A DNA stretch of 64,000 nucleotides from a virus, in the IMG/VR virus record IMGVR_UViG_3300043427_003402; one strand, written 5' to 3'. The position numbers were made by a program, and so were the translations under genes. This document shows positions 2,263 through 57,345 of this stretch, piece by piece (position 1 is the first letter of the stretch; each line of letters starts with the position of its first letter). Under the pieces are notes generated by a model. The model ran no database searches. It saw nothing but the letters and a program-made list of their open reading frames with translations, and was not told where the DNA came from.

Positions 2263-2572
2263 TTTTTGTGCTCCTTTCTAGTTCGGTTAAACCCTCAATC
2301 ACAAGCGCGGTGCAGCGCACTGGCACAAACCGTGCAACCGCAAAGGTGGGCGGCACCATCTCGCACGCCGCCACCACCTCCGCAGTCACCGTGCGGTATG
2401 CGCTAACCGGTAGCACGTGGGCATGGTACTTCACGCAGTCTAGGTATTGCTGGATCACAGATTGCAATCCACGTAACCCGTTCCGCGCGTCCGCGTGCTC
2501 CCCGCACAATGCTAACGCGGCCTGCAGCTGCCGGTGAAACTGCAGCGCCCCAGTGAGGTTAGGGGACGTCAT
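2249..2572 (-). CDS. hypothetical protein
   Basis: start reassigned to MTSPNL; ATGA overlap with upstream stop. Confidence 0.55.
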   Translation of the reverse strand: MTSPNLTGALQFHRQLQAALALCGEHADARNGLRGLQSVIQQYLDCVKYHAHVLPVSAYRTVTAEVVAACEMVPPTFAVARFVPVRCTALVIEGLTELERSTKNGYC

Positions 2573-3060
2573 TTGCCGCCCCCTAACTTGCAGCTGAATG
2601 CCCACACCGTTTTGGTTTCAGTTAGAACGTGCCCGTCCAGCTGGTCTAGGGTGTCCGGGGCTAGCGTTTTGTGCTTGACGCCCAATTTGACTAGGTCGCG
2701 CAACGCCGCCGCATCGACCTTTTCGGCGACCACTTGAGAATAGAGTTGGGGTGCCAATTCCCGGACGGCCGCTGGGTCGTACACCTTGGTTTCACGAGCG
2801 GTGTAACCCACCGTGCCGTAGGGCGTGTGAGTTATGCCCTCACCTTTCTCGCAGAGCTTCCGCAGCTCTTCGTCAGCGCCTTTCAGCGCTTTTTGGAATT
2901 CTGCCAGTTTTTGGCCGACCGGGGTGGCGTCGATGACCGCCTGCAGCTTGGCTGCCTCGGCCGACAACTCGGCCACCTCGGCCATCAGGGCCAAGATTTT
3001 CTCTTGCGGCGTTACCGGTGCCGCTTGTTCTATCGCCTTCTTTTTTGTTTTCGTGACCAT
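2569..3060 (-). CDS. hypothetical coiled-coil protein (loosely Gam/Gp157-like architecture)
   Basis: start MVTKTK with AAGGAGG RBS; N-terminal coiled coil followed by TPYGTVGY and KVDAAALRDLV segments. Confidence 0.65.
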   Translation of the reverse strand: MVTKTKKKAIEQAAPVTPQEKILALMAEVAELSAEAAKLQAVIDATPVGQKLAEFQKALKGADEELRKLCEKGEGITHTPYGTVGYTARETKVYDPAAVRELAPQLYSQVVAEKVDAAALRDLVKLGVKHKTLAPDTLDQLDGHVLTETKTVWAFSCKLGGGK

Positions 3061-3074
3061 GGTTTCCTCCTTCT

Positions 3075-3212
3075 CTAAGGGAACATCCTGCGGTAGCCGT
3101 CGGCTACCTCTTTGGCGACCGCCGGAGGTACGCCGTCCGCCTTCGCCGACTCTTCGATGACGACGGGCAGCACGTGTTTTGCGACTGCGTAGATCACGGC
3201 TAATAAGTCCAT
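3075..3212 (-). CDS. 45-aa hypothetical protein (below ORF-track cutoff)
   Basis: MDLLAVIYAVAKHVLPVVIEESAKADGVPPAVAKEVADGYRRMFP*; TAATG overlap with upstream stop; fills the gap exactly. Confidence 0.55.
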   Translation of the reverse strand: MDLLAVIYAVAKHVLPVVIEESAKADGVPPAVAKEVADGYRRMFP

Positions 3213-3415
3213 TACCTTTTCTTCCTTTCAAACTCCACGCACGCTTGTGTCGTGGGCGTATTACCAAACGCGCTGCACGGTTTGTCGCATTCAAGCAGAG
3301 CGATCACCTCCGCCGTCAACGACCCGATCCCGTGCAGCGCGATTGGGGCCTTCTCTAAATACACACAGTCGCCGCAGCTGCGGCTACCCTTGGCCGCGGG
3401 TGGCCGTTTCTGCAT
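3212..3415 (-). CDS. small Cys-rich hypothetical protein
   Basis: CxxC...CxxxC...C pattern; start uncertain. Confidence 0.45.
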   Translation of the reverse strand: MQKRPPAAKGSRSCGDCVYLEKAPIALHGIGSLTAEVIALLECDKPCSAFGNTPTTQACVEFERKKR

Positions 3416-3872
3416 CCACGGCAACCGCCGTTTTAGCCGGCCGACCCCGCCGGGGGAGGACGCCGAGCGCTTGCGCGCTTTTGGCGTCCAACTCGAGCGG
3501 CACCCCCTTAGCCGCTCTGACTTTGACCTTTATCTGGGGCAGGGGTGGCGCCTCGGGCGTTTTACCCGCCAGTACATCCTCGACGTACTGGAGGTAACGA
3601 ACTGCCAATCGCTGGTACTCCAGCAACTTGGCGTGATCAACACTTGCACTCACCCCAGGATGTTTCAACGCCTCTTGGATGCTGGCCCAGTCGGCGTCGA
3701 ACGCCGGGTCTTGGAGCATCGCGACCAAGCCCTGCGCCAATTTCTTGGCGTCAGCCAGGTTTGCTGCCTCAGCAGACCCCTTTTCCGGCCGCGTCACCAT
3801 CGCGGCCTCAATCGTCGCCCACGCCTCAGCAGCCCTGCCGCCGAGGCTTAAGAGTTTTTGCTTAACAAGCAT
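3384..3872 (-). CDS. hypothetical protein with C-terminal AT-hook-like RRGRP motif
   Basis: 162-aa ORF, GAGGAGG RBS, PRRGRPAK near C-terminus. Confidence 0.65.
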   Translation of the reverse strand: MLVKQKLLSLGGRAAEAWATIEAAMVTRPEKGSAEAANLADAKKLAQGLVAMLQDPAFDADWASIQEALKHPGVSASVDHAKLLEYQRLAVRYLQYVEDVLAGKTPEAPPLPQIKVKVRAAKGVPLELDAKSAQALGVLPRRGRPAKTAVAVDAETATRGQG

Positions 3873-4272: not shown

Positions 4273-4304
4273 TTTACGACCTCCTCGCCCCTTGGGGCTG
4301 TATC

Positions 4305-4337
4305 ACGCAGCATTTATTACGCGCCCTGCGCTGGCGC
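4305..4337 (-). ncRNA. intergenic H-type pseudoknot
   Basis: minus strand GCGCC-aGCGCAG-GGCGC-GUAAUAAAUG-CUGCGU: P1 GCGCC/GGCGC, loop pairs with downstream CUGCGU; same geometry as array copies. Confidence 0.6.
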
Positions 4338-4353
4338 CGGTAACTGTTTAGCC

Positions 4354-4794
4354 TTACCCTATCACAAGCGCCCCGTCGGGCACTTGCTCCATGAACGAGT
4401 CAAATGCCACTTGCATGCGCCCCATGGCGTGATCAGGCACCGGGTTTGTCCGCACCAAATTCCGCGCACGGCAAACGTCGTGCGGTGTGTTGAACACCAC
4501 CAAGTTGACGGCGTAACCGGCCGCCGTCAACTTACTGATTAACGCTTCGCGAAACTGCGGGTGCAGGTTCGTATCGCTGACGTAGAGCGGCACGCCTTGC
4601 CCGATTACCGCGTCAACCAACGCGGTGTGTAACGCCACAGCTTGCGGCGTGCACGCTTGGTTTGTGGCGTCCCCCGACACCGCATGGCGGCAGTCATCGA
4701 GGTTAACGTTAACCCCGCCATTTTGCGCCACCTGATTTGTGGCCCAGTACGTTTTACCGGAACCAGGAATACCGACCGTGATGAATGCTTTCAT
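4354..4794 (-). CDS. P-loop kinase, polynucleotide-kinase-like domain (T4 Pnk kinase/AAA_33 type)
   Basis: GIPGSGKT Walker A, NLDDCR, SDTNL, CRARN..R..PVP lid motif; no phosphatase domain; start MKAF with AAAGGAG RBS. Confidence 0.8.
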   Translation of the reverse strand: MKAFITVGIPGSGKTYWATNQVAQNGGVNVNLDDCRHAVSGDATNQACTPQAVALHTALVDAVIGQGVPLYVSDTNLHPQFREALISKLTAAGYAVNLVVFNTPHDVCRARNLVRTNPVPDHAMGRMQVAFDSFMEQVPDGALVIG

Positions 4795-4835
4795 TACTTC
4801 TCCTTTCCGCAAACCTAAAGGAAAAACCTTATTTC

Positions 4836-4984
4836 GCCGGCGCGAGCTGGCGATGAGGGAAATAACCATCACGCACACACACGCTCCCTACTAAGGAAGT
4901 GAATGTGAATGATAGTTATTCCCCTCATCGCCAGCCCGCGCTGACTCAGGGTGCCACGTATTTATCCTGCGCCCGTGACGGCGC
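4836..4984 (-). ncRNA. structured RNA unit 1: pseudoknot (4953-4984) + long hairpin (4836-4945)
   Basis: inverted repeat with both arms shortened relative to units 2/3 yet still paired. Confidence 0.6.
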
Positions 4985-5008
4985 GGAGCTAAAGGAAAAA
5001 CCTTATTT

Positions 5009-5177
5009 GCCAGCGCGAGCTGGCGACGAGAAGAATAACCATCACGCACACGCGCACGCACATACTCCCTCTTAAGGAAGTAAATGTGAGTGTGAATGTG
5101 AATGATAGTTATTCCCCTCATCGCCAGCCCGCGCTGACTCAGGGTGCCACGTATTTATCCTGCGCCCGTGACGGCGC
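5009..5177 (-). ncRNA. structured RNA unit 2: pseudoknot (5146-5177) + ~60-bp hairpin (5009-5138)
   Basis: 37 uninterrupted pairs then a few mismatches; 9 G-U wobbles on the minus strand. Confidence 0.65.
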
Positions 5178-5201
5178 GGAGCTAAAGGAAAAACCTTATT
5201 T

Positions 5202-5370
5202 GCCAGCGCGAGCTGGCGACGAGAAGAATAACCATCACGCACACGCGCACGCACATACTCCCTCTTAAGGAAGTAAATGTGAGTGTGAATGTGAATGATA
5301 GTTATTCCCCTCATCGCCAGCCCGCGCTGACTCAGGGTGCCACGTATTTATCCTGCGCCCGTGACGGCGC
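5202..5370 (-). ncRNA. structured RNA unit 3: pseudoknot (5339-5370) + ~60-bp hairpin (5202-5331)
   Basis: identical to unit 2; begins 5 nt after the stop of 5376..6269. Confidence 0.65.
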
Positions 5371-5375
5371 AAAAA

Positions 5376-6269
5376 TTAGATCAATTTCTTTTCGAGCATC
5401 TCCTTTCGTGCCCTTTTGGCGGCACTGAGGCTGCCACCAAGGCAGCCGTGCGCTTTCGCGATGTTCGCGATTTGCTGCGCTTGGTCCCTTGATAAGGACC
5501 GACCACTCCATTTTATTTCACCTTGGTCCCTCTCCGGGACCAAGGTGAATCCGTAGGCCGTTGGCCCAACCCATAACACAGTTGCCTCGCCCGGTCCGTT
5601 CCGGACCGCGGTCCTTAAGCCGACCGCTTCTTGCGCCCGAGCACAGGCGCTTTGCGCGGCTTCCGCCGCACCGAAGGCTTTTGTCCGGCTTTCGCCGGAC
5701 AAAAGCCAGGCGGCCTTTTCGGCCGCTTCTTCTGCCTGGCGGAGGAGGCTGACAGCCTCCTCCGCGTCTTCGACGGCCGCTTTGCCGTCGAGGACGCCCC
5801 AATCAACTTGGTCGGCGACCCCCGCCGCCGTTAGCGCGTCGCGGAACGCGCTCAGGTGCCGACTTCCAAACCCTTGTTCACGGGTCAGGGGCCCGTCTAA
5901 ATCGTATGGGTCGTAACACAACACCACGCACGACTCCGCCGCCGCGCCCCGCCCCCGACGCGCCCCGCCCGTGGGGCGATGGATCTCGACCCGGACTTGC
6001 CCGTCCGGGTAGACACACCATCGAGTCCGCCCGGTGCTTGTCTCGTGGTAAACTGCGTGGTCCTCATTAAAGTGGTCAAACCGGTATGCGGGACCCCATG
6101 TCCCGTGGCTCATGCCACAGGCCGCCATAGCGGCCGCCGCTATGGCGGCTTCCGTTTTAAGTTGGAGCACCTGCTCCAGCGCTAGGCTTGTCGCCCACTC
6201 GTGCCCGAAGGCACGGGCCACTTTGTAGGCCGTCTCTAATTGTTTTTCTGTGAATCCTTGGAAACCCAT
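5376..6269 (-). CDS. hypothetical protein, first gene of the early operon
   Basis: start reassigned to MGFQGF (AAAAGGCGG RBS); 297 aa with Ala/Glu coiled coil. Confidence 0.7.
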   Translation of the reverse strand: MGFQGFTEKQLETAYKVARAFGHEWATSLALEQVLQLKTEAAIAAAAMAACGMSHGTWGPAYRFDHFNEDHAVYHETSTGRTRWCVYPDGQVRVEIHRPTGGARRGRGAAAESCVVLCYDPYDLDGPLTREQGFGSRHLSAFRDALTAAGVADQVDWGVLDGKAAVEDAEEAVSLLRQAEEAAEKAAWLLSGESRTKAFGAAEAAQSACARAQEAVGLRTAVRNGPGEATVLWVGPTAYGFTLVPERDQGEIKWSGRSLSRDQAQQIANIAKAHGCLGGSLSAAKRARKEMLEKKLI

Positions 6270-6300
6270 GATTAACCGCCTTTTGCTCGCGACCGTTAGC

Positions 6301-6559
6301 CGTGCTGACGCCAGCACGTTTACACCCCGCACCACGTGTAGGTGGTCGCTTGCGGGGCTAAGCAAGTTAACGTCATGCTCAGGACGGGTTGCTTACTGGT
6401 CAGACTCACCACGTCTGACAGGAGTAGTCGATCAGTCAAGAGGTCATTGCGACTACTCTAAGCAATGACTTTGGAGCAGCTTTAACGTCGTACTCAGGAC
6501 GCCCCTTTACAGCTCAACCCCTAAATAGCGAATCACCCTGCACGCAAACACGTACAGGG
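6301..6559 (-). ncRNA. highly structured non-coding leader: two pseudoknots (6359-6386, 6474-6501), three-way junction (6389-6465), hairpins
   Basis: near-duplicate CGUCCUGAG(CAU/UAC)GACGUUAA with downstream UGCUUA/UGCUC; stems TTGCTTA/TAAGCAA, GTCAGAC/GTCTGAC, GAGTAGTCG/CGACTACTC, CCCCGCA/TGCGGGG, CGTGCTG/CAGCACG. Confidence 0.55.
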
Positions 6560-6565
6560 ATCCTC

Positions 6566-6602
6566 AACTATATATACCGGAAATATGGCCCCATTATGGG
6601 CC
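6566..6602 (-). promoter_or_regulatory. candidate early promoter (AT-rich GGTATATATAG next to GGCCC-ATAATG-GGGCC hairpin)
   Basis: AT-rich patch immediately upstream of the structured leader; position inference only. Confidence 0.3.
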
Positions 6603-6706
6603 ACCCCCACGGGTAGGGGTGCGCGCCTACTCCCAGCGTGCTAATTGCAGCTATCGACGAAAGCAGCTTCGATTACGTGCTACCCCACCTGTGGGGTACG
6701 GGGCCG

Positions 6707-7408
6707 TCAGCCGCGCCGCTGTGCCTGGTAGGCGGTCGGCACTAGGCTCCCACCCGGTGGGGTGGTGGCCGACGCGACCCGGCCGTGGGCCTCTACCGTA
6801 AACCGCGCCGGGTCTCTGTATAGCAGGCTCCGTGCGTGGTTCCAGTTTCGCCGGTGCGAGTACACGATGTGGGTGATCCCACCCGTGGGGTCCTGCAGGG
6901 TTGCCACGGGCAGGTACCCACTGGTCTGGGCCGTGAGGTGGGGCTGCAGCCCGTCCGCGTTACCGATGACCCGCAGGTCTAATGCAGGGGCCGCGTCAAC
7001 CGCGGGGGCGACCGGTGCGTCATCCGCTTGTTTCATCATCAGGTAGATTTGGTAGGGCCCCATGCTCGTTTGCCTCGCTATCTTCTCGACCGCAGTGGGC
7101 CGATTGAAACCGTAGTCTAATACCTTTTGCTTTTCCGACCCCATGATTGTCGGCTCTCCGTGCTTGACGTAAGGGCGCACGTACGCCGCGAACCTGATCA
7201 TGTCGCCTGGCTTGAACGGCTTAAATTCTTGCGTGTGGGGAAGCCAGACGTGATCCGTTACGTGCTCGTCCGTGTCTGTAGTGCGTACGTTCTCCAGCAC
7301 CACGGTGCGTCCGTTCGAGCCGTAGCGCCCGATCCGTGCTTGGTACGTTAAAGGGGTTGCGTCGGGGTGCCGCTCTAGCGGCGCGCGTTGCGCTAAGAAC
7401 TCGCGCAT
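6707..7408 (-). CDS. hypothetical protein, N-terminal possible OB-fold-like phage domain
   Basis: TDHVW...PGDMIRFAAYVRPY motif; TAATG-coupled to baseplate J gene. Confidence 0.6.
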   Translation of the reverse strand: MREFLAQRAPLERHPDATPLTYQARIGRYGSNGRTVVLENVRTTDTDEHVTDHVWLPHTQEFKPFKPGDMIRFAAYVRPYVKHGEPTIMGSEKQKVLDYGFNRPTAVEKIARQTSMGPYQIYLMMKQADDAPVAPAVDAAPALDLRVIGNADGLQPHLTAQTSGYLPVATLQDPTGGITHIVYSHRRNWNHARSLLYRDPARFTVEAHGRVASATTPPGGSLVPTAYQAQRRG

Positions 7409-8886
7409 TAGCTGATGCTCTCGATCGTGATCGCCTCGTTTATAAAACAGGCGACACGGGGGCTAAACCCTTTAGTTAAATTCTCGGGGAACGACAGTAC
7501 GTACGGGCTGCTGGTATTGAAGATCGTCCCGTCCCCGTACAGCACCTGCGCGAACAAGTCGTAGTCTTGAATGACGTTGACGGCCCCGGCGGCGTGCACG
7601 GCGGCGGTAACTTGCGAGACTGCCACGTTCTCCTCGACCTGTAGGCCGTCCAGATAGCTCTGAATGTTGGCGAGAGCTTGGTTTTTCTGGTCCGTCGACA
7701 GCCCTTCGGCATAGACTGTGCCAGCAAGCCAGACGGGGTGGAAGTAACGCACCAGCGTATTCGCGCAGATGACGCGGTTAATCGGGTCGTTGACGTAGTC
7801 GTCGATTCGCACCACGTCCGGGGCGTAAGAGATGTCTACCAGCAACGTTTCGTTCGTTACACCGGGGTCAACAAAAAGGTACGCCGGGTCTTTCGCCGAG
7901 AACCTCAAGCTCGGGGTGCTGCCTTGCAGGTCAAAGAACGGCGCGAGTTCAGGCTTCCCTTTTACTTTTACGCTGTGCACTTTCAAGACTGCGCGGTACG
8001 CTTCCAACGAAACCAGCGCCTCACCCGCCGCAACAAAAATTTCAACGGTGTCGCGCACAATCGGTGTTTTGACGTAGATGTCGGTGTGCCCGCCGATCGC
8101 CAGCGTTATCGTCCCTGCGACTGGGTCGTCTACTGTAATTTGATCGCGTTTCATTTCCGGGTCTTGGTAGCCGGCCACCGCCAAACGCGAAATCGTACTA
8201 GGGAACTGCCCGTACAGCACTTTTTCAATCGACAGCCGGTTTACCAAGTTGGCCACAACCGGCGCGGTGCGAATACGCTCGGCGTACGCTGCGGCGGACT
8301 CCTGATCCCGGCCGCCGATCATTGGCGCCACAGAAATAATCTCAATCACGTTGGTGTTGCTGCTAAGTGCAGCAGACGTAAATAACGTGCCTACCGCCGC
8401 AACATACTGCGAACCCGGTTCAGCCGCGCGCAGTTGAACGCGCGTGTAAAAGTAGCCAAACGTCGGATCCTCTACTAATTGTTCCGGCGTTACTGACACA
8501 TCAGCTTGCGGATAGTAGACCAGACCGTTCTGCTCGAACATATCGTTTGTAGTTAGCTGCACGCTCTGCCGCACCACGAACTTTATCGCCACGGTACCCG
8601 ACGCCGCTTCCCCCGCACTACGCGTCACGAAAAAGCGGTCACCCACAGCAGCCAGCTCCGAATCCGTTAACTCGTCAGCGGCAAGCAGCGTCGTTTTACG
8701 AGCAGCAGTGTTAATCATGTCAATAATCTGCGCCACCACAGGCAACTGCGCCCGAACAAACAAGTCATACTGCGGGGTACCGGAGCGCAGGTCGAGCTCG
8801 TCACCGGTCGTCGACAGGTAGTTTGCTTTGATCGCCTCGACAAGAAACTGCTCTGCTTGCTGCAAAACAATATCGGTTACCGCCAT
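7408..8886 (-). CDS. baseplate J-like wedge protein
   Basis: RFFVTRSAGEAASGTV, AAEPGSQY, GGRDQESAAAYAERIR are baseplate J/gp47-type motifs; adjacent to gp25-like gene. Confidence 0.85.
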   Translation of the reverse strand: MAVTDIVLQQAEQFLVEAIKANYLSTTGDELDLRSGTPQYDLFVRAQLPVVAQIIDMINTAARKTTLLAADELTDSELAAVGDRFFVTRSAGEAASGTVAIKFVVRQSVQLTTNDMFEQNGLVYYPQADVSVTPEQLVEDPTFGYFYTRVQLRAAEPGSQYVAAVGTLFTSAALSSNTNVIEIISVAPMIGGRDQESAAAYAERIRTAPVVANLVNRLSIEKVLYGQFPSTISRLAVAGYQDPEMKRDQITVDDPVAGTITLAIGGHTDIYVKTPIVRDTVEIFVAAGEALVSLEAYRAVLKVHSVKVKGKPELAPFFDLQGSTPSLRFSAKDPAYLFVDPGVTNETLLVDISYAPDVVRIDDYVNDPINRVICANTLVRYFHPVWLAGTVYAEGLSTDQKNQALANIQSYLDGLQVEENVAVSQVTAAVHAAGAVNVIQDYDLFAQVLYGDGTIFNTSSPYVLSFPENLTKGFSPRVACFINEAITIESIS

Positions 8887-9341
8887 TATGCAATCTCCGT
8901 ACTAAAAGGGATGCTCATACCAACGCTTTGACCTGCCGCGTTTGTCACTACGGCCGTCACTGTCAACATCGACTGCGTCTTATCTATTTCGATTGAGTCC
9001 GCGATTAACCGTTGCAACCGCTGGTCGTCAGGCAGCTGCTGGTCCCGCTGCCGCGCCATCAGCACCGCTTGCGCGCGGTTGAACTCCACCTGTACAAAAT
9101 TCTGCAACTCTGTCACGTCGTTGACCGAGACCCGCCCCACCATCGCCGGTAGCAGTGTACCGAACTCTTCATCTGACGGTATAGAGCCCAGCGTGGTAAG
9201 CAGGCAGTAAATAACTTCAAACACTAACTTGTCTGCGCCCGTACCGTAGCGTGCGTCTGCGAAACCGCGCCGGACGTCGATGCTGTATAGCCCAAGACCG
9301 AGCTTTTCGTACACTCCGGCTGCAAATCCGAACGTTGCCAT
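8886..9341 (-). CDS. gp25/GpW-like baseplate wedge (sheath initiator)
   Basis: LLTTLGSIPSDEEFGTLL motif, 151 aa, coupled to J. Confidence 0.8.
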   Translation of the reverse strand: MATFGFAAGVYEKLGLGLYSIDVRRGFADARYGTGADKLVFEVIYCLLTTLGSIPSDEEFGTLLPAMVGRVSVNDVTELQNFVQVEFNRAQAVLMARQRDQQLPDDQRLQRLIADSIEIDKTQSMLTVTAVVTNAAGQSVGMSIPFSTEIA

Positions 9342-9352
9342 GCGCTACTCCG

Positions 9353-9694
9353 TCAAACCCGCCCCGTCGCGTGGCGCTTTACGCGCCCATCTTCATAATT
9401 ATCGACCTGCTGACGTGCAGCACGGGCGTCCTGTACATAATCTAAGAAGGACTTGTTCCGCAGCTCCACAGCGCGCTTTGACGCGGCGATGCAGTCCAGA
9501 GCCTGCTGTTCTACTGCCAGTAACCCCGGTGCCCTCGTGTCTTTTATCGCCGCCTCCAACGCTTTCGGCGCGTGCAGCGCTGCCACCACAGTTTCTGCGT
9601 AGGGTGTGAAAGTTAAATTTTCTACTGCTTGACGGTACGCCTTCCGGGCGGTTACAAATTTCTGGAACTCAAGGTTCGGAGCAGAGTCAGCCAC
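9353..9694 (-). CDS. hypothetical helical protein
   Basis: 113-aa ORF, GAGAGG RBS, GTG start. Confidence 0.6.
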   Translation of the reverse strand: MADSAPNLEFQKFVTARKAYRQAVENLTFTPYAETVVAALHAPKALEAAIKDTRAPGLLAVEQQALDCIAASKRAVELRNKSFLDYVQDARAARQQVDNYEDGRVKRHATGRV

Positions 9695-9711
9695 AGTAGG
9701 TACCTCTCAGC

Positions 9712-10839
9712 GTGAAGATTCAAAAACCTAGTAAAACCGCGTACGATGACCACCGGAAAGCAAGTGCGGATCGGCATTACGCAACTGTTCTGACGGTGGA
9801 CCCCGTCAGGCATACCGCAACCGTGCTGACTTCCGACAACCGCGTGCTGCGGGATATACCAATTATAAAAGATACGGGCGGGCACGGCGCGGGCGACTTC
9901 TCAACGCCTGAACCAGGGTGGCAGTGCGTGTTAACCCAAGCTATAGGCGTCGAAGCGATTGATTTCTGCTTTCCAGCGGCCACTTATTTCTCGGACGGGC
10001 AGCCCCCGGAGCACGACGAGAACACACAAGCGGTGAACACGTTCTTGAGCCTGACGGGCGCGCCCGCGCCTTACCGTAAAGTAGAGAACCCCACTAAAAG
10101 TTTTCGCGGTCGCCGGCCGTATGATCTGATCGCAGGCGATCAAGGCTTCCGTACGTCTGAGGGCGCATCGGTGTTCGCCCTGCGCGGCGGCGTCGCGGGC
10201 ATCAAAGTTGACGACTTGTGCCAGATCCTACTGAACCAGGTCGACCACTTGACACGCGTCGTTTCTCGGCAATTCGAGCTGATGACCGACGCCGGGATTA
10301 TTCAGAGCGAGAATGACAAAGGTAAAACTTCCTTTCGCGTACGCGCGAACAGCGCTGCCCGTAACACTTACTCCGACGCTTACGAGTTCGATCTCAAGGT
10401 TGGGGCTAACGCAAGCAAAGCGTTCATTGACTACGAGCTGCGCTCACCCGACACAAGGGAACGCTCGGCGTCGCTTAAGATGGATCAGACCGGGACAAGT
10501 GTCGCGTACCAGCGCGGGGATGACCTCCGTGAGGTGGGCGGAAGACAAGGCTTAGGTGTTGCAGGTAATCAAAAAATTATCGTTGCGGGAAATCAGGATA
10601 TTGAAGTTGACGGTAATCATCGTCTAAAGTGTGGAAACGTTAACTTGGGCGATAACGGCGGGGAAAAAGCGCCAATGGGAGAACAGCTTCAAAGGTACCT
10701 GGATGAGCTGAAGTTCTTTCTTGACACACAGCTCATGGTGATGACGTCTATGGGCCCCAGTACACCCGGCGCGTTCATGAAACCTTCCCCCACAGTACCG
10801 CGCTTGCTTTCAGACGTCGTCAAGTATATCCAGCGGTAG
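9712..10839 (+). CDS. baseplate central spike (gpV/gp5-like, OB-fold + beta-helix)
   Basis: N-terminal VLTVDP...PEPGWQC OB-like segment; VGGRQ/VAGNQ/VAGNQ/VDGNH 8-residue beta-helix repeats; MGPS tip. Confidence 0.75.
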   Translation: MKIQKPSKTAYDDHRKASADRHYATVLTVDPVRHTATVLTSDNRVLRDIPIIKDTGGHGAGDFSTPEPGWQCVLTQAIGVEAIDFCFPAATYFSDGQPPEHDENTQAVNTFLSLTGAPAPYRKVENPTKSFRGRRPYDLIAGDQGFRTSEGASVFALRGGVAGIKVDDLCQILLNQVDHLTRVVSRQFELMTDAGIIQSENDKGKTSFRVRANSAARNTYSDAYEFDLKVGANASKAFIDYELRSPDTRERSASLKMDQTGTSVAYQRGDDLREVGGRQGLGVAGNQKIIVAGNQDIEVDGNHRLKCGNVNLGDNGGEKAPMGEQLQRYLDELKFFLDTQLMVMTSMGPSTPGAFMKPSPTVPRLLSDVVKYIQR

Positions 10840-11066: not shown

Positions 11067-13790
11067 GTGCCACCCACCGAGGAACAAATTCGCCTGGTCA
11101 CGAAAGGCCGCTTTGACTCTGGTTTCCAGGGTCTAGACGCGCTGATTCAACCTTTAGACGCAGTCGCCGAACTATTCGGTAAGATTTCGCCGCTGTTAAT
11201 GGCCGCAGAGGGGCTGATTACCGCGTTTAAGCTTGCTGTGCAGATTGTACTCGGTCCCATACTGTTTTTCATGGGCCTCGTGGCCGATGCTACGGGCTTT
11301 ATGCGCACGGCCGCGCAGCAGATAAAAACGAAGCTCGCGGAGTTCTTGGCCGCGGTAGACTTCGACATGGCGCAGGCCGCTTACCGCGGACCGGTCGCGC
11401 AGTTCCCGAATGCGGTTACGGCGTACTTCACCCCATACAACTCGCAGACCAGCGCCGACGCGAACATTCACGCGCACCCGGCGGAGACTGACGTGACGGC
11501 AGTGATTATCGTCACGACCGATAAGGTGGCGGCAGTCGCGCTCTCGCCCGATAACTTTTGTGTCCCGATTGTCAGGCCCCAAAATAGTCCGACACTCCAA
11601 GCCGTAGCGGGGCCGCAGGCGGCCTTTGTCGCCGCGCCCGCCACCTCCGCCACGCTTTACGCGGCTTACGCAATCGCGTATAAGCCCGGTACCTCAGACG
11701 AGATCGAGACGCCCGCCTCGCCTGCCGCGCGCGTGGTGGTGAAAGCCGGAGAGGCCGTACGGATCACGCTACCGGAATCCGAACTCACGCTCCCGGGCGC
11801 GCCCCCGCGTAGCCGCTACGTGTATTTAGGGACGTCCGAAATTACGATGCGCCGCGTAGGGGCGTTGACAGGCTCGGACGCCATGCTGACGGTGCAAACG
11901 CTACCGCCAACCACCGCACAGCTGCCAGTGGGTGCCACCGGAGAACCGCCTGCTGCGCAAAACAAGATTACAAACGCGCAAATTGCAGCGGACGCGGCAC
12001 TCGGCGTCACTTGGAAGTCTGCCGCATCCGCGTCTAAAACTTATAGGCTAGCGCTGCTCAAGAAGCGCGCTGAACCGCGCCCAGCAGGCCCAACCAGCCC
12101 GGTCTCCGTTGCCCCGGCTGGCCTTGGCGAGCAGTTTAAAGCCAACGAGACGTACGAGTTTAGCTACTCGTACATGGGCTTGATAGCAGACCCCGCGCGC
12201 CCAGAACAGCCGCCCCGAGAACTCGAGACGGCAGTTGCCCCGTGGCAAAAGTTCACGACCACGGACGCCACGAGTGGCCTGACCGTGACGGTGCCGGCCG
12301 TCAGCGCGTTTATCACTCTCGTGTATATGCGCCACCCGGATCGCCCCGACACGATGTACCGCGTGCAGACGCTGATGGCGGGCAACGACACTGTTACGTG
12401 GGCGCCCACGGGCCCGCTGACTTGGGCGCACATGCAAACCGCGTGGCCTGTTGACCCAAACTGGGACAGGTTTGAACAGAAGTTTGTAACCGAAGCCGGC
12501 GAAGTACACGCGTTTGCGTTCCCTCAAGCAGGCGTGCTCAAGGGCGAATACCGCGTTGCAGTAGCCTCCGAAGACTCGGAAATGCTGTCGCACAACGTAC
12601 CTTACGAAGGCGCAAAGTTTTTCGAGACACGTACAAAAGAGACAGTGCTTGTTGACTTTCAGAGCGAGTCGGTGGTCGACGTGCAGTTTAAAACAAATTG
12701 GCTGCCTGACGCCACCGTGGACCCGTACGTCAAAGTTAGCCTAAAGGACCCGGCTGACGGCGCCCTTTACGAGAATTCTTTATCCTACGCAGACCAAGAG
12801 TTTTCCCGCTCGTCCGACGGCTTGATCACTCACCGGTGCACCCTGCCGGACGGCGCTAGCTTCGCAGCAGGCGCCAAGTACAAATTGGTGCTGGAGCTTT
12901 TGCAGCAGGGCCAAGCGCAGGACAGCGTGCTTATTGAAGGTATAGTGTACACACCGGACTTCTTTACCGACCGCACGCCACAGGCGCTAACTGTTCAATT
13001 TACGAGCAGCACACAGGCTTCAGTCACCGGGAGAGTAGGCGCGGCGTGGGCAAGCGTACCGAACGGCACTTCGATTAAGTTCAAGTTTGAGGTCCGGTCT
13101 ACTGTACCGGCGGGCACGATGTTTACGGCGCAGGCCCCTTGGACAGGCGGCGCCGTGAGCCCTTCGACCGGAACGACGGCGGTCACGCAGCAAGTCTTAT
13201 TAACAACTCCGCACCTGTTTGCGCAGGGCTCAACCTACGAATTTGTAATTACGCCTGTCGTCAATGGGGAAGAACTTGTCGCGCAGCGGCTAGAAGCGGC
13301 CAAGACGTACGGTACGGCCGCGGCCCTCGCCCCGAGTATGGGCCCGTTGTGGGTGCTGCCTTTTCTGAAGGTATTTTATATTTTAAACCCTGTTAAAGAT
13401 TTCTTAGGGCAAGTTGACAGCGTTCTTGAGCGCGCGTTTTCCGTGTTGAAGGAGACCGTCGATAAGGCAAGCGAGCGTAAAGCTGGTATCGAGGCAATGC
13501 TGAAGTTTTTCGACGACCTGCTCGAGAATGTGCGCAGCGCGTCTAACTCCGTGCAAGGCGCAGTCACGCGCCTGTTCTCGTTCAAGGCGTCTTTCAAGGC
13601 GGCTTTGAAACTCGGGCCCGTTTGTATATTGAAGTACGACGGTAAAGTCGGGAACCTTGGCGCGGCGTTGGCAGCCAACGACCAGTTTGCCACGTTAGTT
13701 GACCTTGGGGCTGACACAGAGATTTACGCCACCATCTACATCGCGCAGGGCTCCGGCCGTGCGTTCGTTAGTTCGTTGCTGGGAGGCTAG
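11067..13790 (+). CDS. large virion structural protein (helical ends, beta-rich middle)
   Basis: 907 aa in baseplate cluster; amphipathic helical N- and C-termini with a duplicated domain. Confidence 0.6.
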   Translation: MPPTEEQIRLVTKGRFDSGFQGLDALIQPLDAVAELFGKISPLLMAAEGLITAFKLAVQIVLGPILFFMGLVADATGFMRTAAQQIKTKLAEFLAAVDFDMAQAAYRGPVAQFPNAVTAYFTPYNSQTSADANIHAHPAETDVTAVIIVTTDKVAAVALSPDNFCVPIVRPQNSPTLQAVAGPQAAFVAAPATSATLYAAYAIAYKPGTSDEIETPASPAARVVVKAGEAVRITLPESELTLPGAPPRSRYVYLGTSEITMRRVGALTGSDAMLTVQTLPPTTAQLPVGATGEPPAAQNKITNAQIAADAALGVTWKSAASASKTYRLALLKKRAEPRPAGPTSPVSVAPAGLGEQFKANETYEFSYSYMGLIADPARPEQPPRELETAVAPWQKFTTTDATSGLTVTVPAVSAFITLVYMRHPDRPDTMYRVQTLMAGNDTVTWAPTGPLTWAHMQTAWPVDPNWDRFEQKFVTEAGEVHAFAFPQAGVLKGEYRVAVASEDSEMLSHNVPYEGAKFFETRTKETVLVDFQSESVVDVQFKTNWLPDATVDPYVKVSLKDPADGALYENSLSYADQEFSRSSDGLITHRCTLPDGASFAAGAKYKLVLELLQQGQAQDSVLIEGIVYTPDFFTDRTPQALTVQFTSSTQASVTGRVGAAWASVPNGTSIKFKFEVRSTVPAGTMFTAQAPWTGGAVSPSTGTTAVTQQVLLTTPHLFAQGSTYEFVITPVVNGEELVAQRLEAAKTYGTAAALAPSMGPLWVLPFLKVFYILNPVKDFLGQVDSVLERAFSVLKETVDKASERKAGIEAMLKFFDDLLENVRSASNSVQGAVTRLFSFKASFKAALKLGPVCILKYDGKVGNLGAALAANDQFATLVDLGADTEIYATIYIAQGSGRAFVSSLLGG

Positions 13791-13795
13791 AAGTT

Positions 13796-15301
13796 TTGCC
13801 CGATACATCATCTGCACTTCCTTATTGGGTCTCATCAGAGCCTATCCAATGGCAACCGCTTAACAGCTCTTTCGCTACTTTGATGACCGCAACCGCAACT
13901 TTCGTGGCAGGAGCGATCGCCATAACCGATAACTCGCGCCTGGCTGCCGAAGCCGTTAACGCGCGGCTGCTTAGCTGGTACCAGTCTGAGATACAACCTC
14001 AAGTCGCCGCCGCACAAGACCTCGCGACCGCCGCGGCCAACTTTTTAGAGGACGTTTTCGCTTCTGGCCTACACTGGTACGTGATGCCGCCCAGTTTCGG
14101 CGGGTTCGGCGCCGTGGAAGACACGGTGCTGCCCGGGCTGTCCGATCCCACTATACCGGACGCGCCCCGCTTCTCCGAAGACATGTACGCTGGTGGTATC
14201 TTGGTGCTCCTGACTGGCCCGCCTTACGTTTTGTACGAAGTGTCCAGTTTGCTCATCAGCACACTTGCAGCGCGACCGGCCACTGCGCAGCGCGCGTTGC
14301 AGCAGCTCAGCACACAAAGCGCGGTCGCCGGCCCCGCCATGGCGGCGCTCACGGATTTGGCCGTACTCCCGCAGGCAGCGTGGAGCGACAGCACCACAAC
14401 TTTTAAAAACATGTTCAACGCCACGCCGGTAGCACAGATTCTCAAGTCCGCATCCGAGTTCCCACAGAAATGGGTACAGAGCACCGAGGTCGAAGTGGCA
14501 CGACTCGAGCCGGATGCGGTACGCGTGCGTACGCCGTTTACGCTGCAGTTATTTGGCCGGGGGTTCCTGGCTACGGACCGCGTCCGCATAAACAACGTTC
14601 TCTACACGCCGGCGGTTGCAGACGACGGTAGCGGTATGCAGGTTGAGCTGCCGGCGACCGCCTTGACTACTGCAGGGCAAACTCGGGTGGCGGTTGCGCG
14701 GGCAGGTGCCGACGCTGCGTGGCGCGACCTGACCGTAGAGCAGCCGCAAGTGCTCGAAACTTTAGCGGAGTTATCCGGCTCCGAGCTCTACGGCTGGCAT
14801 CAATTTGATATATGGGCGCCTTTTTCGGGCCTAGACCCGTGGAAAGGCGTCGCGCAGTTAATACCGGGTGCCGCGCAGATCGCAAGCGCGGTAACCGCGA
14901 CACTTGACGCCGTAGGCGATCCGGCAACCGGTGCCGCCGTAAATAATTTCGCCACGTCAGCGCTACGCGCCTCAAGCCGCTCAGTCACGAGCACTGCCAC
15001 TCGTGCCCGAACCGACCTGCAGCGCCTGCAAAGCGGCATACAGCAGCTGTCAACCGCAACCGCCGCTCTCGGGGCTTCAGTCTTAGTCGTACCGCCAGTT
15101 TTAGGTGGCAACCACCAACTCGGATACGCTTTGCGCCAAGGGCTGAACGGCTACGCACTGAACACGCCCCTCGTCGATCCGGACGCAGCAGTCGCAGGCA
15201 TGTTTATTTGCGCTGGCGACACTGACCGCGCGCGCGTCATCGCGGCGCTAAACCAAGTTTCCTCGGTCTTGCAAATGGTCCCCTGGTCCCCGCTCGCATA
15301 G
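13796..15301 (+). CDS. virion structural protein with internal duplication and IPT/TIG-like insert
   Basis: LEPD...LQLFGRGF...VRIN IPT-like segment; repeated VxPPxxGG...P....AG(I/M) units. Confidence 0.6.
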   Translation: MPDTSSALPYWVSSEPIQWQPLNSSFATLMTATATFVAGAIAITDNSRLAAEAVNARLLSWYQSEIQPQVAAAQDLATAAANFLEDVFASGLHWYVMPPSFGGFGAVEDTVLPGLSDPTIPDAPRFSEDMYAGGILVLLTGPPYVLYEVSSLLISTLAARPATAQRALQQLSTQSAVAGPAMAALTDLAVLPQAAWSDSTTTFKNMFNATPVAQILKSASEFPQKWVQSTEVEVARLEPDAVRVRTPFTLQLFGRGFLATDRVRINNVLYTPAVADDGSGMQVELPATALTTAGQTRVAVARAGADAAWRDLTVEQPQVLETLAELSGSELYGWHQFDIWAPFSGLDPWKGVAQLIPGAAQIASAVTATLDAVGDPATGAAVNNFATSALRASSRSVTSTATRARTDLQRLQSGIQQLSTATAALGASVLVVPPVLGGNHQLGYALRQGLNGYALNTPLVDPDAAVAGMFICAGDTDRARVIAALNQVSSVLQMVPWSPLA

Positions 15302-24927: not shown

Positions 24928-25803
24928 TTAAAGTCCTATATCGTGCAGAACGTCGCCCATCTCGGCCGCTATTCGTTTACGCAGCTGTAACAGCGTCTCT
25001 TCTAAGTCTTTACTAATCTGATTATAGCTCCGACCGATCTGTACGCCAAAGCCATTAACCCCAGGGACCAGTTCACCGTCTTCAATTACTGTTAGCTTAC
25101 CTGTAATCGCTCGTTTGTTGTGCTCGGCGTCTTCAAAGTAGATTCCAAGGTACTGGCAAACCAGAACACCCTCTACCGCAGGCAGTTCCGCAAGCAGCTC
25201 CAGTATCTCCTTTGTGAGGGCTGCGGAGACGTACTGGTTCTCGGCCGAACCTGAAACGAGTTGCGCGTCGGCGGCCAGCGCCGCGACCGCGGAGAAGTCA
25301 TCGTCGGTAGTATCGGTGCCAGTTTCGTACTGCCTGAAGTTAGGGGCGTCAAACGACCACGTGCCCGCGGCCAGCGCACGAAGTTGAAACTTGCTGAACT
25401 TTTCGTAACTTTTACGCTCCGCTTCCGTCACGCTGTTGGGGTCGCGCTCCAGCTTGTTCAAGTGCGTCTTCAGCTCAACGAGCTTCAGGAAAGGAATGGT
25501 AGCCATGTAACCCATTTTGCTCATGTGATCCGTCAACGCGCGCTTAATAATCCAAAAGGCATACGTTATCAACTTGTTCTTGCAGGTCAGGTCGAACGTT
25601 TTGATAGCCGTCATCATGCCGATGTTGGCCTCTTGCATGACGTCTTCCATCGCCACCCAATCTGGGTACGTGATACGGTTAACGAGCATCTTTATAAAAG
25701 AGCGGTGCCGCTTCAGCAGCGCCATCATCGCATCGCCATCTCCGGACTGCGCACGGCGGATGAGTTCAAGCTCGTCAGTCTTTTCTTTGCTCACTCTGGG
25801 CAT
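24928..25803 (-). CDS. sigma-70-family RNA polymerase sigma factor
   Basis: LIRRAQSGD.DA (r1.2/2.1), EDVMQEANIGMMTAIKTFD....KLITYAFWII (r2.2-2.4), SFDAP (r3.2); region 4 divergent. Confidence 0.85.
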   Translation of the reverse strand: MPRVSKEKTDELELIRRAQSGDGDAMMALLKRHRSFIKMLVNRITYPDWVAMEDVMQEANIGMMTAIKTFDLTCKNKLITYAFWIIKRALTDHMSKMGYMATIPFLKLVELKTHLNKLERDPNSVTEAERKSYEKFSKFQLRALAAGTWSFDAPNFRQYETGTDTTDDDFSAVAALAADAQLVSGSAENQYVSAALTKEILELLAELPAVEGVLVCQYLGIYFEDAEHNKRAITGKLTVIEDGELVPGVNGFGVQIGRSYNQISKDLEETLLQLRKRIAAEMGDVLHDIGL

Positions 25804-49631: not shown

Positions 49632-50373
49632 CGTCTGCCCCTGGTACATTTATGCGCTGAATGATTCGTGCAGCGTTGGCGCGGATCAAGAGCAGAATCT
49701 TTTTAATGACCAAAGGGTCTTGCCGTACGCGGAAGGCAGGGATCGTCAACACCTGTAAATTCAACGTGCACTCGAACAGGTCGTCATACTCCTCAGTTAG
49801 TACCGGGCCGTTCAAATCAGGGTACCCTACGTACTGAAGGTTAAAAGCTTGCTGTATGTCTAGGCGGCTAGCGATGAGCGCGCCGCGTATGCGCTGAGCC
49901 AGCAGGGTCGCGCGTAACGAATCGCGGTCAAGCACCTGAATTTGGTAGATCAAGGTTTCGCGCACGGCCCGTCGGTCGTCTTGCGGGGCGTCTGCACCCG
50001 CCATCTTGACGGCGTCTCGCATCGCATGGGTCTCTGCCTGCGCGCGCCCAAACTTTACGACGATTAAAGGCCGCTTATCCCGAGCGGCCATTTCGTTGCG
50101 CCGAAGGTCTTTTGCAATCAGCACCGCGGAGCGCTCCGGATCCTCGGGGAAATAAATAAAATCGTCATCAGTCATGAACCGGTGCTCGATCACGCTGAGG
50201 ATGCCACTCTGCACGAGAAGCGGCAGAAACTCGTAATTGGTTGAGGCGATTGCGCTCAGGTGCGACATCAAGGTCGCAACGGACGCCTGCGCAAACTCGT
50301 TAGGGTCGTTGTTTATTGCAAGCGGGTCGTTGCCGTTAGGGTCGGGGTAACCTGCGAATGGCTCGATCGACAT
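49624..50373 (-). CDS. possible tail completion/terminator protein
   Basis: RPLIVVKFG and YQIQV...LAQRIR pattern; TAATG-coupled to RNAP beta-prime C gene. Confidence 0.45.
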   Translation of the reverse strand: MSIEPFAGYPDPNGNDPLAINNDPNEFAQASVATLMSHLSAIASTNYEFLPLLVQSGILSVIEHRFMTDDDFIYFPEDPERSAVLIAKDLRRNEMAARDKRPLIVVKFGRAQAETHAMRDAVKMAGADAPQDDRRAVRETLIYQIQVLDRDSLRATLLAQRIRGALIASRLDIQQAFNLQYVGYPDLNGPVLTEEYDDLFECTLNLQVLTIPAFRVRQDPLVIKKILLLIRANAARIIQRINVPGADDA

Positions 50374-57270: not shown

Positions 57271-57345
57271 AGCTACCTCTAATAAAGCGAGCACGACAAA
57301 CGCGTCCTTTTAAACGCGCGCGTAGGGGTACCTGCGGCAAACTAC

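Follow-up and report, generated by a model that had tools for sequence, protein, structure and literature searches.

The intergenic region at positions 4815-5370 of the window, as the whole 64,000-nucleotide stretch of phage DNA analysed here is called, holds tandem copies of what appears to be a new family of structured-RNA elements, one that lies outside Rfam and has covariation support. The reading that best accounts for them, at a probability of roughly 0.5, is that the element acts in cis, forming or protecting transcript 3′ ends at the boundaries of gene cassettes, and that it has been multiplied here via unequal crossing-over. The units would be copies of a clade-specific element that punctuates an accessory operon located 3′ of the baseplate genes in a group of jumbo phages. 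Each copy comprises a very long sense-strand hairpin, with 33-37 uninterrupted basal pairs and up to about 58 pairs in total, and a pyrimidine-rich single-stranded tail, UUUUCCUUUAG, and closes a gene or gene cassette at its 3′ side. The phage studied here has the element between the gene for a 297-aa protein and that for a Pnk-like kinase, in two to three copies that would have been produced by crossing-over at 92-nt identical segments. The argument starts from features that are directly observed: the sequence folds in a strand-specific way, the fold covaries and is followed by a conserved tail, and the elements lie between cistrons, at cassette boundaries, and in unstable copy number.

The window comes from a large tailed phage of very divergent sequence, which encodes pieces of the beta and beta′ subunits of a multisubunit RNA polymerase and a sigma-70-family factor, in addition to a ribonucleotide reductase, a large terminase, a tail sheath, and baseplate wedge proteins. 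Neither the array nor 20 kb of the window has a nucleotide match among INPHARED phages. Querying IMG/VR with the flanking proteins returned nothing, and a metagenome scan with a baseplate profile recovered distant relatives only. The array fills the 580-bp gap that separates two minus-strand genes, and the features of this neighbourhood are the following:

6568-6577, minus strand: GTATATATAG box at the head of the operon, found at the same place in relatives.
4298-6475, minus strand: 2.2-kb block (297-aa gene, array, and kinase gene) that is missing from the nearest relative, L011.
5376-6269, minus strand: upstream gene for a 297-aa protein, supported by its in-frame coding score.
5184-5370, minus strand: unit 3 (U3), the first met in the direction of transcription, delimited by the 193-bp repeat calls and the fold; small GC hairpin with its candidate pseudoknot at 5341-5370, long hairpin at 5202-5331, tail motif at 5182-5195.
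4991-5183, minus strand: unit 2 (U2), identical to U3 and without a separate copy in assembly L073; small hairpin with candidate pseudoknot at 5148-5177, long hairpin at 5009-5138 (58 pairs, 9 of them G-U), tail motif at 4989-5002.
4815-4990, minus strand: unit 1 (U1), a variant unit delimited by the repeat finder and the fold; small hairpin with candidate pseudoknot at 4955-4984, shorter long hairpin at 4840-4941 (about 50 pairs), tail motif at 4815-4828.
4354-4797, minus strand: downstream gene for a 147-aa kinase-only protein that resembles the kinase domain of T4 polynucleotide kinase (AAA_33).
About 4304-4337, minus strand: paralogous small hairpin 3′ of the kinase gene, with an AUAAAU linker and a covarying loop/tail pair.

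The array was resolved into three units by Tandem Repeats Finder and a second repeat finder, which report a period of 193 bp and 100% identity over 4899-5370. These calls agree with the initial annotation, which had described three tandem units, each with a long fold-back. Read on the minus strand, every unit runs from a small GC hairpin through a linker to the long hairpin and then to the tail, AAAUAAGG-UUUUUCCUUUAG. The small hairpin consists of GCGCC, a 6-nt loop, and GGCGC, and is followed by an A-rich linker and then CGUG, which, by inspection, can pair with CACG in the loop. An H-type pseudoknot, previously claimed for each unit, is accordingly possible rather than established, and the paralogous copy at 4304-4337 shows the corresponding loop/tail covariation, GCGCAG with CUGCGU. 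A further small hairpin noticed earlier, AAGG-UUUUU-CCUU, is present in the minimum free energy (MFE) fold. The stem ladder also matches the earlier description exactly: in U2 and U3, the stem has 58 pairs in total, of which 37 are uninterrupted and 9 are G-U, with U x C mismatches at positions 38, 44, and 50, an A x C mismatch at 46, and a 2-nt UU bulge. U1 is 100% identical to the other units over its first 92 nt on the minus strand, which cover the small hairpin and the 5′ arm; it diverges by about 20% across the loop, the 3′ arm, and the tail, and its apex is 20 nt shorter. In the basal 37 bp, the four differences between U1 and U2 all retain pairing via wobble, as had been proposed for the substitutions in this unit.

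The folding energies are exceptional for this DNA. Across the window, 140-nt tiles have a mean of -47.3 kcal/mol (sd 8.7), and the array hairpins, whose stem bases are GC-rich, are the lowest-energy tiles, their folds lying 5 sd under the window mean. The fold is also strand specific. Each hairpin reaches an RNA MFE of -95.4 kcal/mol on the minus strand and -72.2 on the plus strand, while the whole array reaches -341 against -275, with a z of about -20, so that folding both strands bears out the wobble pairing exclusive to the minus strand that had been pointed out before. The difference of 23 kcal/mol per hairpin is obtained with RNA parameters; with DNA parameters, the sense strand is still better, by about 5. 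A stem scan that treated both strands alike (score of at least 24) found no long stem in the window outside the array, and no other copy of the array was found elsewhere in the 64 kb. A dispersed MITE- or REP-like element was rejected on the lack of any further window copy and on the 0-2 hairpins per genome of the relatives. At or above the gathering threshold, Rfam 15 gave 0 matches in the window; below it, only generic models of miRNA-precursor hairpins appeared. Two other ideas were dropped at this stage: open reading frames within the array show no coding signal in their codon score, and an even spacing of the G-U pairs, by which they would break DNA palindromes, gave P = 0.2-0.7 in a permutation test.

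Relatives of the phage were gathered through the baseplate-J-like protein (7408-8886), at identities of 86, 61-63, 50, and 39%, and their neighbourhoods were compared. Six related jumbo-phage contigs bear long sense-strand hairpins in the same accessory operon, in one copy per site. The relatives' stem scan, run with score thresholds of 17-22, returned only the following long stems, to which a shorter hairpin is added:

L013, 17240-17338, sense strand: 30 Watson-Crick and 6 G-U pairs.
L021, 14016-14145, sense strand: 35 Watson-Crick and 8 G-U pairs.
L022, 9924-10037, sense strand: 33 Watson-Crick and 5 G-U pairs.
L022, 9227-9314, second hairpin, sense strand: 30 Watson-Crick and 3 G-U pairs.
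L024, 14833-14924, sense strand: 32 Watson-Crick and 3 G-U pairs.
L026, about 13700-13800, sense strand: about 48 pairs.
L012, 15451-15525: shorter hairpin with a variant tail.

Every element is located between open reading frames, past a stop codon and with the next start 30-100 nt on. In the stem scans of the window and the relatives, long hairpins on the antisense strand numbered 0, and the whole records of three relatives (106-204 kb) contain no long hairpin outside the accessory operon. The stem sequences of the relatives are largely unrelated to those of the window; between homologous hairpins of two phages, changes are compensatory. The stems of the second L022 hairpin and of L024 differ by a single double change, G-C to A-U, with no breaks. 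In the basal and middle parts of the stem, L021 differs from the first L022 hairpin by 3 double changes and 4-5 single changes that keep pairing by wobble; the apices of these two are too diverged to align, yet they still fold. Both observations fit the initial claim that structure is conserved over sequence. Counted over the whole MFE hairpins of six independent elements from this phage and its relatives, G-U pairs outnumber A-C mismatches by 35:4. This bias, the compensatory changes, and the gap of 23 kcal/mol under RNA parameters as against about 5 under DNA parameters suggest selection at the RNA level, and the comparison as a whole constitutes good evidence that selection maintains a sense-strand RNA fold. 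One candidate was excluded from the family, a second long 'hairpin' at 43551-43702 of the relative G001, which is a G-rich 24-nt tandem repeat.

The hairpins are accompanied by a recurrent tail. The UUUUCCUUUAG motif or a variant of it occurs within 0-15 nt 3′ of most long hairpins in the relatives and the window. In particular, TTTTCCTTTAG lies 10-14 nt past the long hairpin in the three window units, in both L022 hairpins, and in L024, and variants follow the hairpins of L026, L012, L013, and L021. Within the window, the tail word is confined to the array, and in the records of five relatives (106-204 kb, three of them estimated to be at least 90% complete) it is as rare as a control pattern. 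Since the tail is rare elsewhere, hairpin and tail can be treated as one element family; its rarity across the genomes, no commoner than the control pattern, also led to rejection of the idea that it serves as a general phage promoter. In L012, an ordinary 10-bp GC hairpin (13980-14016) is directly abutted by the one-base variant UUUUCCUUUCG / TTTTCCTTTCG, a combination that has the sequence features of a textbook intrinsic terminator, and in L021 and L022 the U-run abuts the long stem. The nearest relative, L011, has at the matching spot a 7-bp hairpin followed by the common tail, UUUUUCCUUUAGG, with which the tail of U1 aligns. From reading the sequences, the pyrimidine-rich tail is complementary to AAAGGA-type ribosome-binding sites downstream; in the window, the tail of U1 ends 12 nt ahead of the ribosome-binding site of the kinase gene. 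An AG(C) is conserved after the U-run. An IMG/VR scan with an 18-nt tail word gave only chance matches, as checked by BLAST. The tail also bears a loose likeness to boxA, the NusB/NusE site, whose gamma-proteobacterial consensus is GYTCTTTAANA (PMC5725501). This identification was rejected, as TTTTCCTTTAGC is off at 4 specified positions, although that consensus is gamma-proteobacterial and may not be the host's.

The elements also mark places where gene content changes. The nucleotide identity of L011 to the window is about 77% on either side of the 2.2-kb block that it lacks, and the downstream edge of this indel coincides with the common tail motif. Between L022 and L024, whose baseplate genes are 96% identical, homology is lost about 50 nt past one element and regained about 50 nt past the next, and the interval contains different genes and one extra hairpin. 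Similarly, L021 and L022 differ by a pentapeptide gene inserted just 3′ of a common hairpin. Genes for HNH endonucleases occur in the same region of relatives.

The 147-aa kinase is matched by Pfam (4.5e-20), by the PHROG for polynucleotide kinase (8e-21), and by PDB entry 1ly1 (4e-9); among solved structures, it comes nearest to the kinase domains of two enzymes, T4 polynucleotide kinase and Clostridium Pnkp. A linkage between kinase and array was rejected, as homologues of the kinase occur elsewhere without a hairpin array, and the hairpins of the relatives neighbour genes unrelated to it, such as those for RadC and a pentapeptide protein. The N-terminal 100-150 aa of the 297-aa protein belong to an unannotated family with 73 remote homologues. 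No function for this protein emerged from Pfam, NCBIfam, PHROGs, the ESM Atlas, a PDB sequence profile, or an AF2 model (pLDDT 74) searched with Foldseek, which matched no PDB fold.

Transcription of the array on the minus strand is deduced from the orientation of the genes. The GTATATATAG box, present at one site per phage just after the baseplate genes, is likely the promoter of the operon, judging from its position and conservation: the block of ~75 nt around it has one mismatch between the window and L011. On this reading of the box, a minus-strand transcription unit would enclose the array, and its leader is a conserved structured RNA.

Copy number in the array is unstable. An independent assembly, L073 (JGI 3300047510), spans the locus from the upstream gene through the array to the kinase with two units, one of the U2 type and U1. 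Two further contigs from other samples, which encode an identical baseplate protein, match the window at 100% identity over 13.6 kb and break off within the array, one of them 30 nt in and the other exactly 127 nt in, on a 127-mer common to U3 and U2. This length equals what we take to be the assembly k-mer of the JGI metaSPAdes pipeline (k=127), and the second end may therefore represent a branch in a k=127 assembly graph, which would require at least two identical successive units. The alleles observed are thus two units (L073), three units (the window), and contigs that break within the array, and unequal crossing-over among the 92-nt identical segments would explain all three states. That two distinct units are present is certain, since both occur in every assembly that spans the locus. 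The exact-duplicate third unit of the earlier count, missing in L073, is either polymorphic or was collapsed or expanded by assemblers.

What the element would do to the transcript, termination or processing, is deduced from these features, and two mechanisms are compatible with them. One is a long-stem terminator or attenuator, which fits the presence of an ordinary terminator in the family, the stem-adjacent U-runs in relatives, the structured leader, and a published precedent for an effect of stem length: a longer stem alone makes an intrinsic terminator resist processive antitermination (PMC10325885). The other is an RNase III-type site for double-stranded processing, in which the leftover stem would block 3′ exonucleases. 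The stems of the window units, L013, and L022, with their 33-37 uninterrupted pairs on the transcribed strand, exceed the at least about 20 bp of uninterrupted double-stranded RNA expected of an RNase III substrate. Precedents for processing and protection also exist: RNase III cleaves the early mRNA of T7 at hairpins between cistrons, and REP hairpins confer stability on the mRNA upstream of them. Pfam scans of the window found no RNase III gene. In addition, the tail, through its complementarity to the AAAGGA-type site of the next gene, may modulate the translation of that gene.

At this locus, the balance between these options may be shifted. The hairpins of the window are GC-rich, as in intrinsic terminators, but the U-tract, expected 0-2 nt past the stem, begins 12 nt past it (as U5CCU3). 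Because of this gap, the window units are not canonical intrinsic terminators, and a simple terminator scan flags none of them. Moreover, the kinase gene starts 28 nt past the last tail, which is too short a distance for a promoter, so the last unit, if no other, has to allow some read-through. Given the gap before the U-run and the necessary read-through, this locus leans towards processing, stability, or translational control. Two points count against the cis-acting reading: neither 2-3 copies nor 58-pair stems are needed for such a role, and the AG(C) past the U-run suggests that something recognises this sequence specifically, which is accounted for neither by termination nor by RNase III.

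The initial annotation proposed a dosage-amplified phage noncoding RNA, for example a double-stranded decoy or sponge directed at RNase III or at RNA-sensing defence systems, or else a small-RNA precursor. In such a trans-acting scheme, rod-like double-stranded units of about 190 nt would be released, a host factor that binds double-stranded RNA would be a further possible target, and the copies would set the dose. This proposal explains the multiplication and such long perfect helices better than a cis-acting role does: tandem multiplication and variation in copy number are a possible outcome of selection for dosage, and 33-37 uninterrupted pairs surpass the needs of any known cis signal. A small 5′ hairpin and a conserved tail, both of which could be processing sites, come with every unit, and the sequence turns over quickly while the fold is kept. 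Nevertheless, the relatives hold single copies embedded between open reading frames, mostly with the U-rich tail, no sigma-70-type promoter was found on the minus strand of the units, and a search of both arms for antisense matches elsewhere in the window, a check that had been suggested, was negative. The third copy is also missing from one assembly, L073, so the amplification may be neutral. The comparison thus found no support for a trans-acting decoy or small-RNA precursor, which we consider unlikely; a cis-acting punctuation of transcripts is favoured because of the tail motif, the cassette context, and the single copies of the relatives.

The same hairpins could in principle work as single-stranded DNA, with the sense-strand hairpin and tail serving as a recombination or transposition site at cassette ends, similar to attC or to the ends of IS200/IS605 elements, or as a signal for priming or an origin. 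A strand bias alone is no proof of RNA, as the sense strand folds better as DNA too and the G-T wobble is the mildest mismatch also in DNA, and the hairpins coincide with breakpoints of gene content among relatives that carry HNH endonuclease genes in the region. However, the small energy gain of G-T over A-C in DNA is hard to square with the 35:4 ratio, and the hairpins always follow the local direction of transcription. Pfam scans of the 64 kb turned up neither an integrase or other recombinase nor a Y1 transposase or reverse transcriptase, and, by inspection, the stem base, GCGCGGGC.../...GCUCGCGC, has no attC core or inverse-core sites of the form RYYYAAC ... GTTRRRY, which also sets the element apart from integron attC. 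Cumulative GC skew shows no turning point at the array, contrary to the replication origin considered as an alternative at the outset. A role as single-stranded DNA is, in consequence, quite improbable, and it is very doubtful that the element specifically delimits mobile gene cassettes as a site of single-strand recombination, in an integron-like or IS200/605-like exchange within a jumbo-phage accessory operon, with the tandem copies as footprints of repeated cassette gain and loss.

The position of direct repeats immediately 5′ of a small gene recalls type III-like toxin-antitoxin systems, in which the RNA repeats would be the antitoxin for the downstream P-loop kinase. The kinase has a weak match to Zeta_toxin (6e-6), and repeat expansion is known for the pseudo-ToxI of phages. 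Even so, the kinase is far nearer to the kinase domains of the T4 and Clostridium Pnk enzymes, its homologues elsewhere lack a repeat array, and the hairpins of the relatives adjoin unrelated genes. Known type III toxins are endoribonucleases, and the units measure 193 nt instead of the about 36 nt of known systems, all of which makes this identification highly improbable. It is scarcely credible that the array or the hairpins were made by mis-assembly, since, despite the 100% identity of U2 and U3, the two-unit assembly, and the short-read contigs that break there, every locus-spanning assembly has both distinct units (80% identical in their variable half), the break at 127 nt would need at least two identical units (with k=127 as presumed above), and homologous elements of conserved structure occur on six other phage contigs; the earlier worry about an assembly duplication therefore touches the third copy only.

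The significance of the family lies partly in where it occurs, a barely sampled clade of jumbo phages with their own multisubunit RNA polymerase and sigma factor, and partly in its dimensions: its stems, of 33-58 pairs and about 15% G-U, are far longer than those of known bacterial or phage terminators or RNase III sites. Were the elements terminators, they would add to the recent evidence that the balance of termination and antitermination can be set by the length of the stem; were they processing sites, they would reveal a way in which giant phages divide up long accessory transcripts. Located as they are at gene-content breakpoints, they can serve as markers of cassette shuffling and may even take part in it. 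For now, their practical value is modest.

No described element with this architecture had been recognised at the start, and this holds: no Rfam family matches, and a literature search on long hairpins or tandem noncoding RNAs in jumbo phages found nothing equivalent. Several known classes can be set aside. As had been noted, the array is not CRISPR, as its units adjoin one another directly, head to tail, at a period of 193 bp and with nothing in between that could be a spacer. A retron msr-msd is contradicted by the lack of an RVT domain in the open reading frames of the window (Pfam and PHROGs) and by the unit ends, which have only the 4-bp AAGG/CCUU pairing and no a1/a2 repeats. 6S RNA is rod-like as well, with about 180 nt, but it has a large central bubble; the present stems show only single-nt mismatches and a 2-nt bulge, and no Rfam 6S match was obtained at E up to 10. 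ToxI-type antitoxin arrays and phage pseudo-ToxI are similar in being tandem direct RNA repeats 5′ of a small gene, with a copy number that varies by recombination. The present unit, however, is five times longer and folds into a rod-like hairpin, and its neighbour is a Pnk-like kinase, in an association that is not conserved, rather than a ToxN-type RNase of the ToxN/AbiQ family of endoribonucleases. REP and BIME sequences of enterobacteria are likewise imperfect palindromes, intercistronic, and sometimes tandem, and REPs act as 3′ barriers in RNA; in contrast to their hundreds of dispersed copies of about 35-40 nt, the present element occurs 0-3 times per genome and in one operon.

The closest likenesses are to hairpins that terminate or divide transcripts. 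The RNase III hairpins of T7 early mRNA (R0.3, R0.5, R1.1, etc.), and similar sites in SP82, are also intercistronic sense-strand structures in a phage operon that keep structure over sequence, and in T7 the stem left after the cut protects the upstream mRNA. Nevertheless, the T7 sites are single, have about 20-25 bp with an internal loop, and are without a conserved U-rich tail, whereas the present element has 33-58 pairs, many G-U, a conserved tail, and tandem copies, with cleavage predicted at most. TerR of plasmid pLS20 (PMC10325885) shares a stem beyond the usual 7-11 bp, a U-rich tract after it, a position at the end of an operon segment, and a structured-RNA leader, and its functional feature is the length of the stem, not its sequence. 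In TerR, however, the stem has 15 bp and the U-tract is adjacent, against 33-58 pairs and, in the window, a 12-nt gap before the U-run; in addition, genes follow here without a visible promoter, and an antitermination system in this phage would be hypothetical. The element is, in sum, kin to intercistronic RNA hairpins and terminator-like punctuation, and what makes it unusual within that company is a long stem rich in G-U, a tail that is conserved, and amplification in tandem.

The accessory operon, which comprises the minus-strand genes after the baseplate genes, is likely headed by a promoter or control region. This reading is suggested by sequence conservation: a block of about 75 nt that carries GTATATATAG, with a hairpin after it, has a single mismatch between the window and its nearest relative, L011, which are otherwise about 77% identical. 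In addition, the TATATATA core is found at the equivalent position in L013, L021, and L022, contigs of other relatives. Downstream, most relatives share a small leader hairpin of the type CGUCC-loop-GGACG with UUAA after it, and the window has it twice. The locations of these elements are as follows.

Window 6540-6610, minus strand: near-identical block with GTATATATAG
L011 3570-3650: near-identical block with GTATATATAG
Window 6355-6500, minus strand: leader hairpin and UUAA
L011 3815-3860: leader hairpin and UUAA
L013 about 12540-12580: leader hairpin and UUAA
L017 about 15175-15215: leader hairpin and UUAA
L021 about 12530-12570: leader hairpin and UUAA
L024 about 12510-12550: leader hairpin and UUAA
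Window 5376-6269, minus strand: 297-aa protein gene

The loop of this hairpin could pair with a downstream pentamer as a pseudoknot in the window and L011, between which a compensating change is seen (GAGUA/UGCUC vs CAGUA/UGCUG); the pairing is not evident in other relatives. The structured leader also holds, directly upstream of the 297-aa gene, a sequence that weakly matches RF02682, the model of an HDV-like ribozyme (6289-6358, minus strand; E 0.078); its 24.9 bits lie below the gathering score of 44.

The N-terminal domain of the 297-aa protein (about 100-150 aa) is common to about 70 unannotated proteins, with H23, W25, P60, and R98 invariant. Its AF2 model predicts four helices and a beta-meander, for which no PDB fold match was found. 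The 3′ half of the gene has an unusual abundance of hairpins capped by GNRA and UUCG loops, and within the gene, 5661-5800 equals the array in fold strength on both strands.

Repeats occur in other contigs as well. In a relative's record, G001 (IMGVR_UViG_3300035703_000034), 43551-43702 has the score of a G-U-rich "hairpin", yet it belongs to another repeat class: a G-rich 24-nt unit is repeated seven times in tandem in a divergent intergenic region. L041, which carries a kinase homologue and shares a sample with the relative L023, has no called genes across 2373-3665 (1.3 kb) and 7734-9806 (2 kb), and carries a long, imperfect, AT-rich inverted repeat at about 8464-8720.

Elsewhere in the window, the phage encodes a sigma-70-family factor, beta/beta′ proteins of its own multisubunit RNA polymerase, and a ribonucleotide reductase large subunit.

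24928-25803, minus strand: sigma-70-family factor (Sigma70_r2, 5e-13)
50373-52223 and 57346-61635: RNA polymerase beta/beta′ proteins
53869-57294, minus strand: ribonucleotide reductase large subunit

Residues of about 392-467 of the reductase form an HNH endonuclease-like insert (PHROG hits), which could represent an intein or have arisen by insertion of a homing endonuclease.
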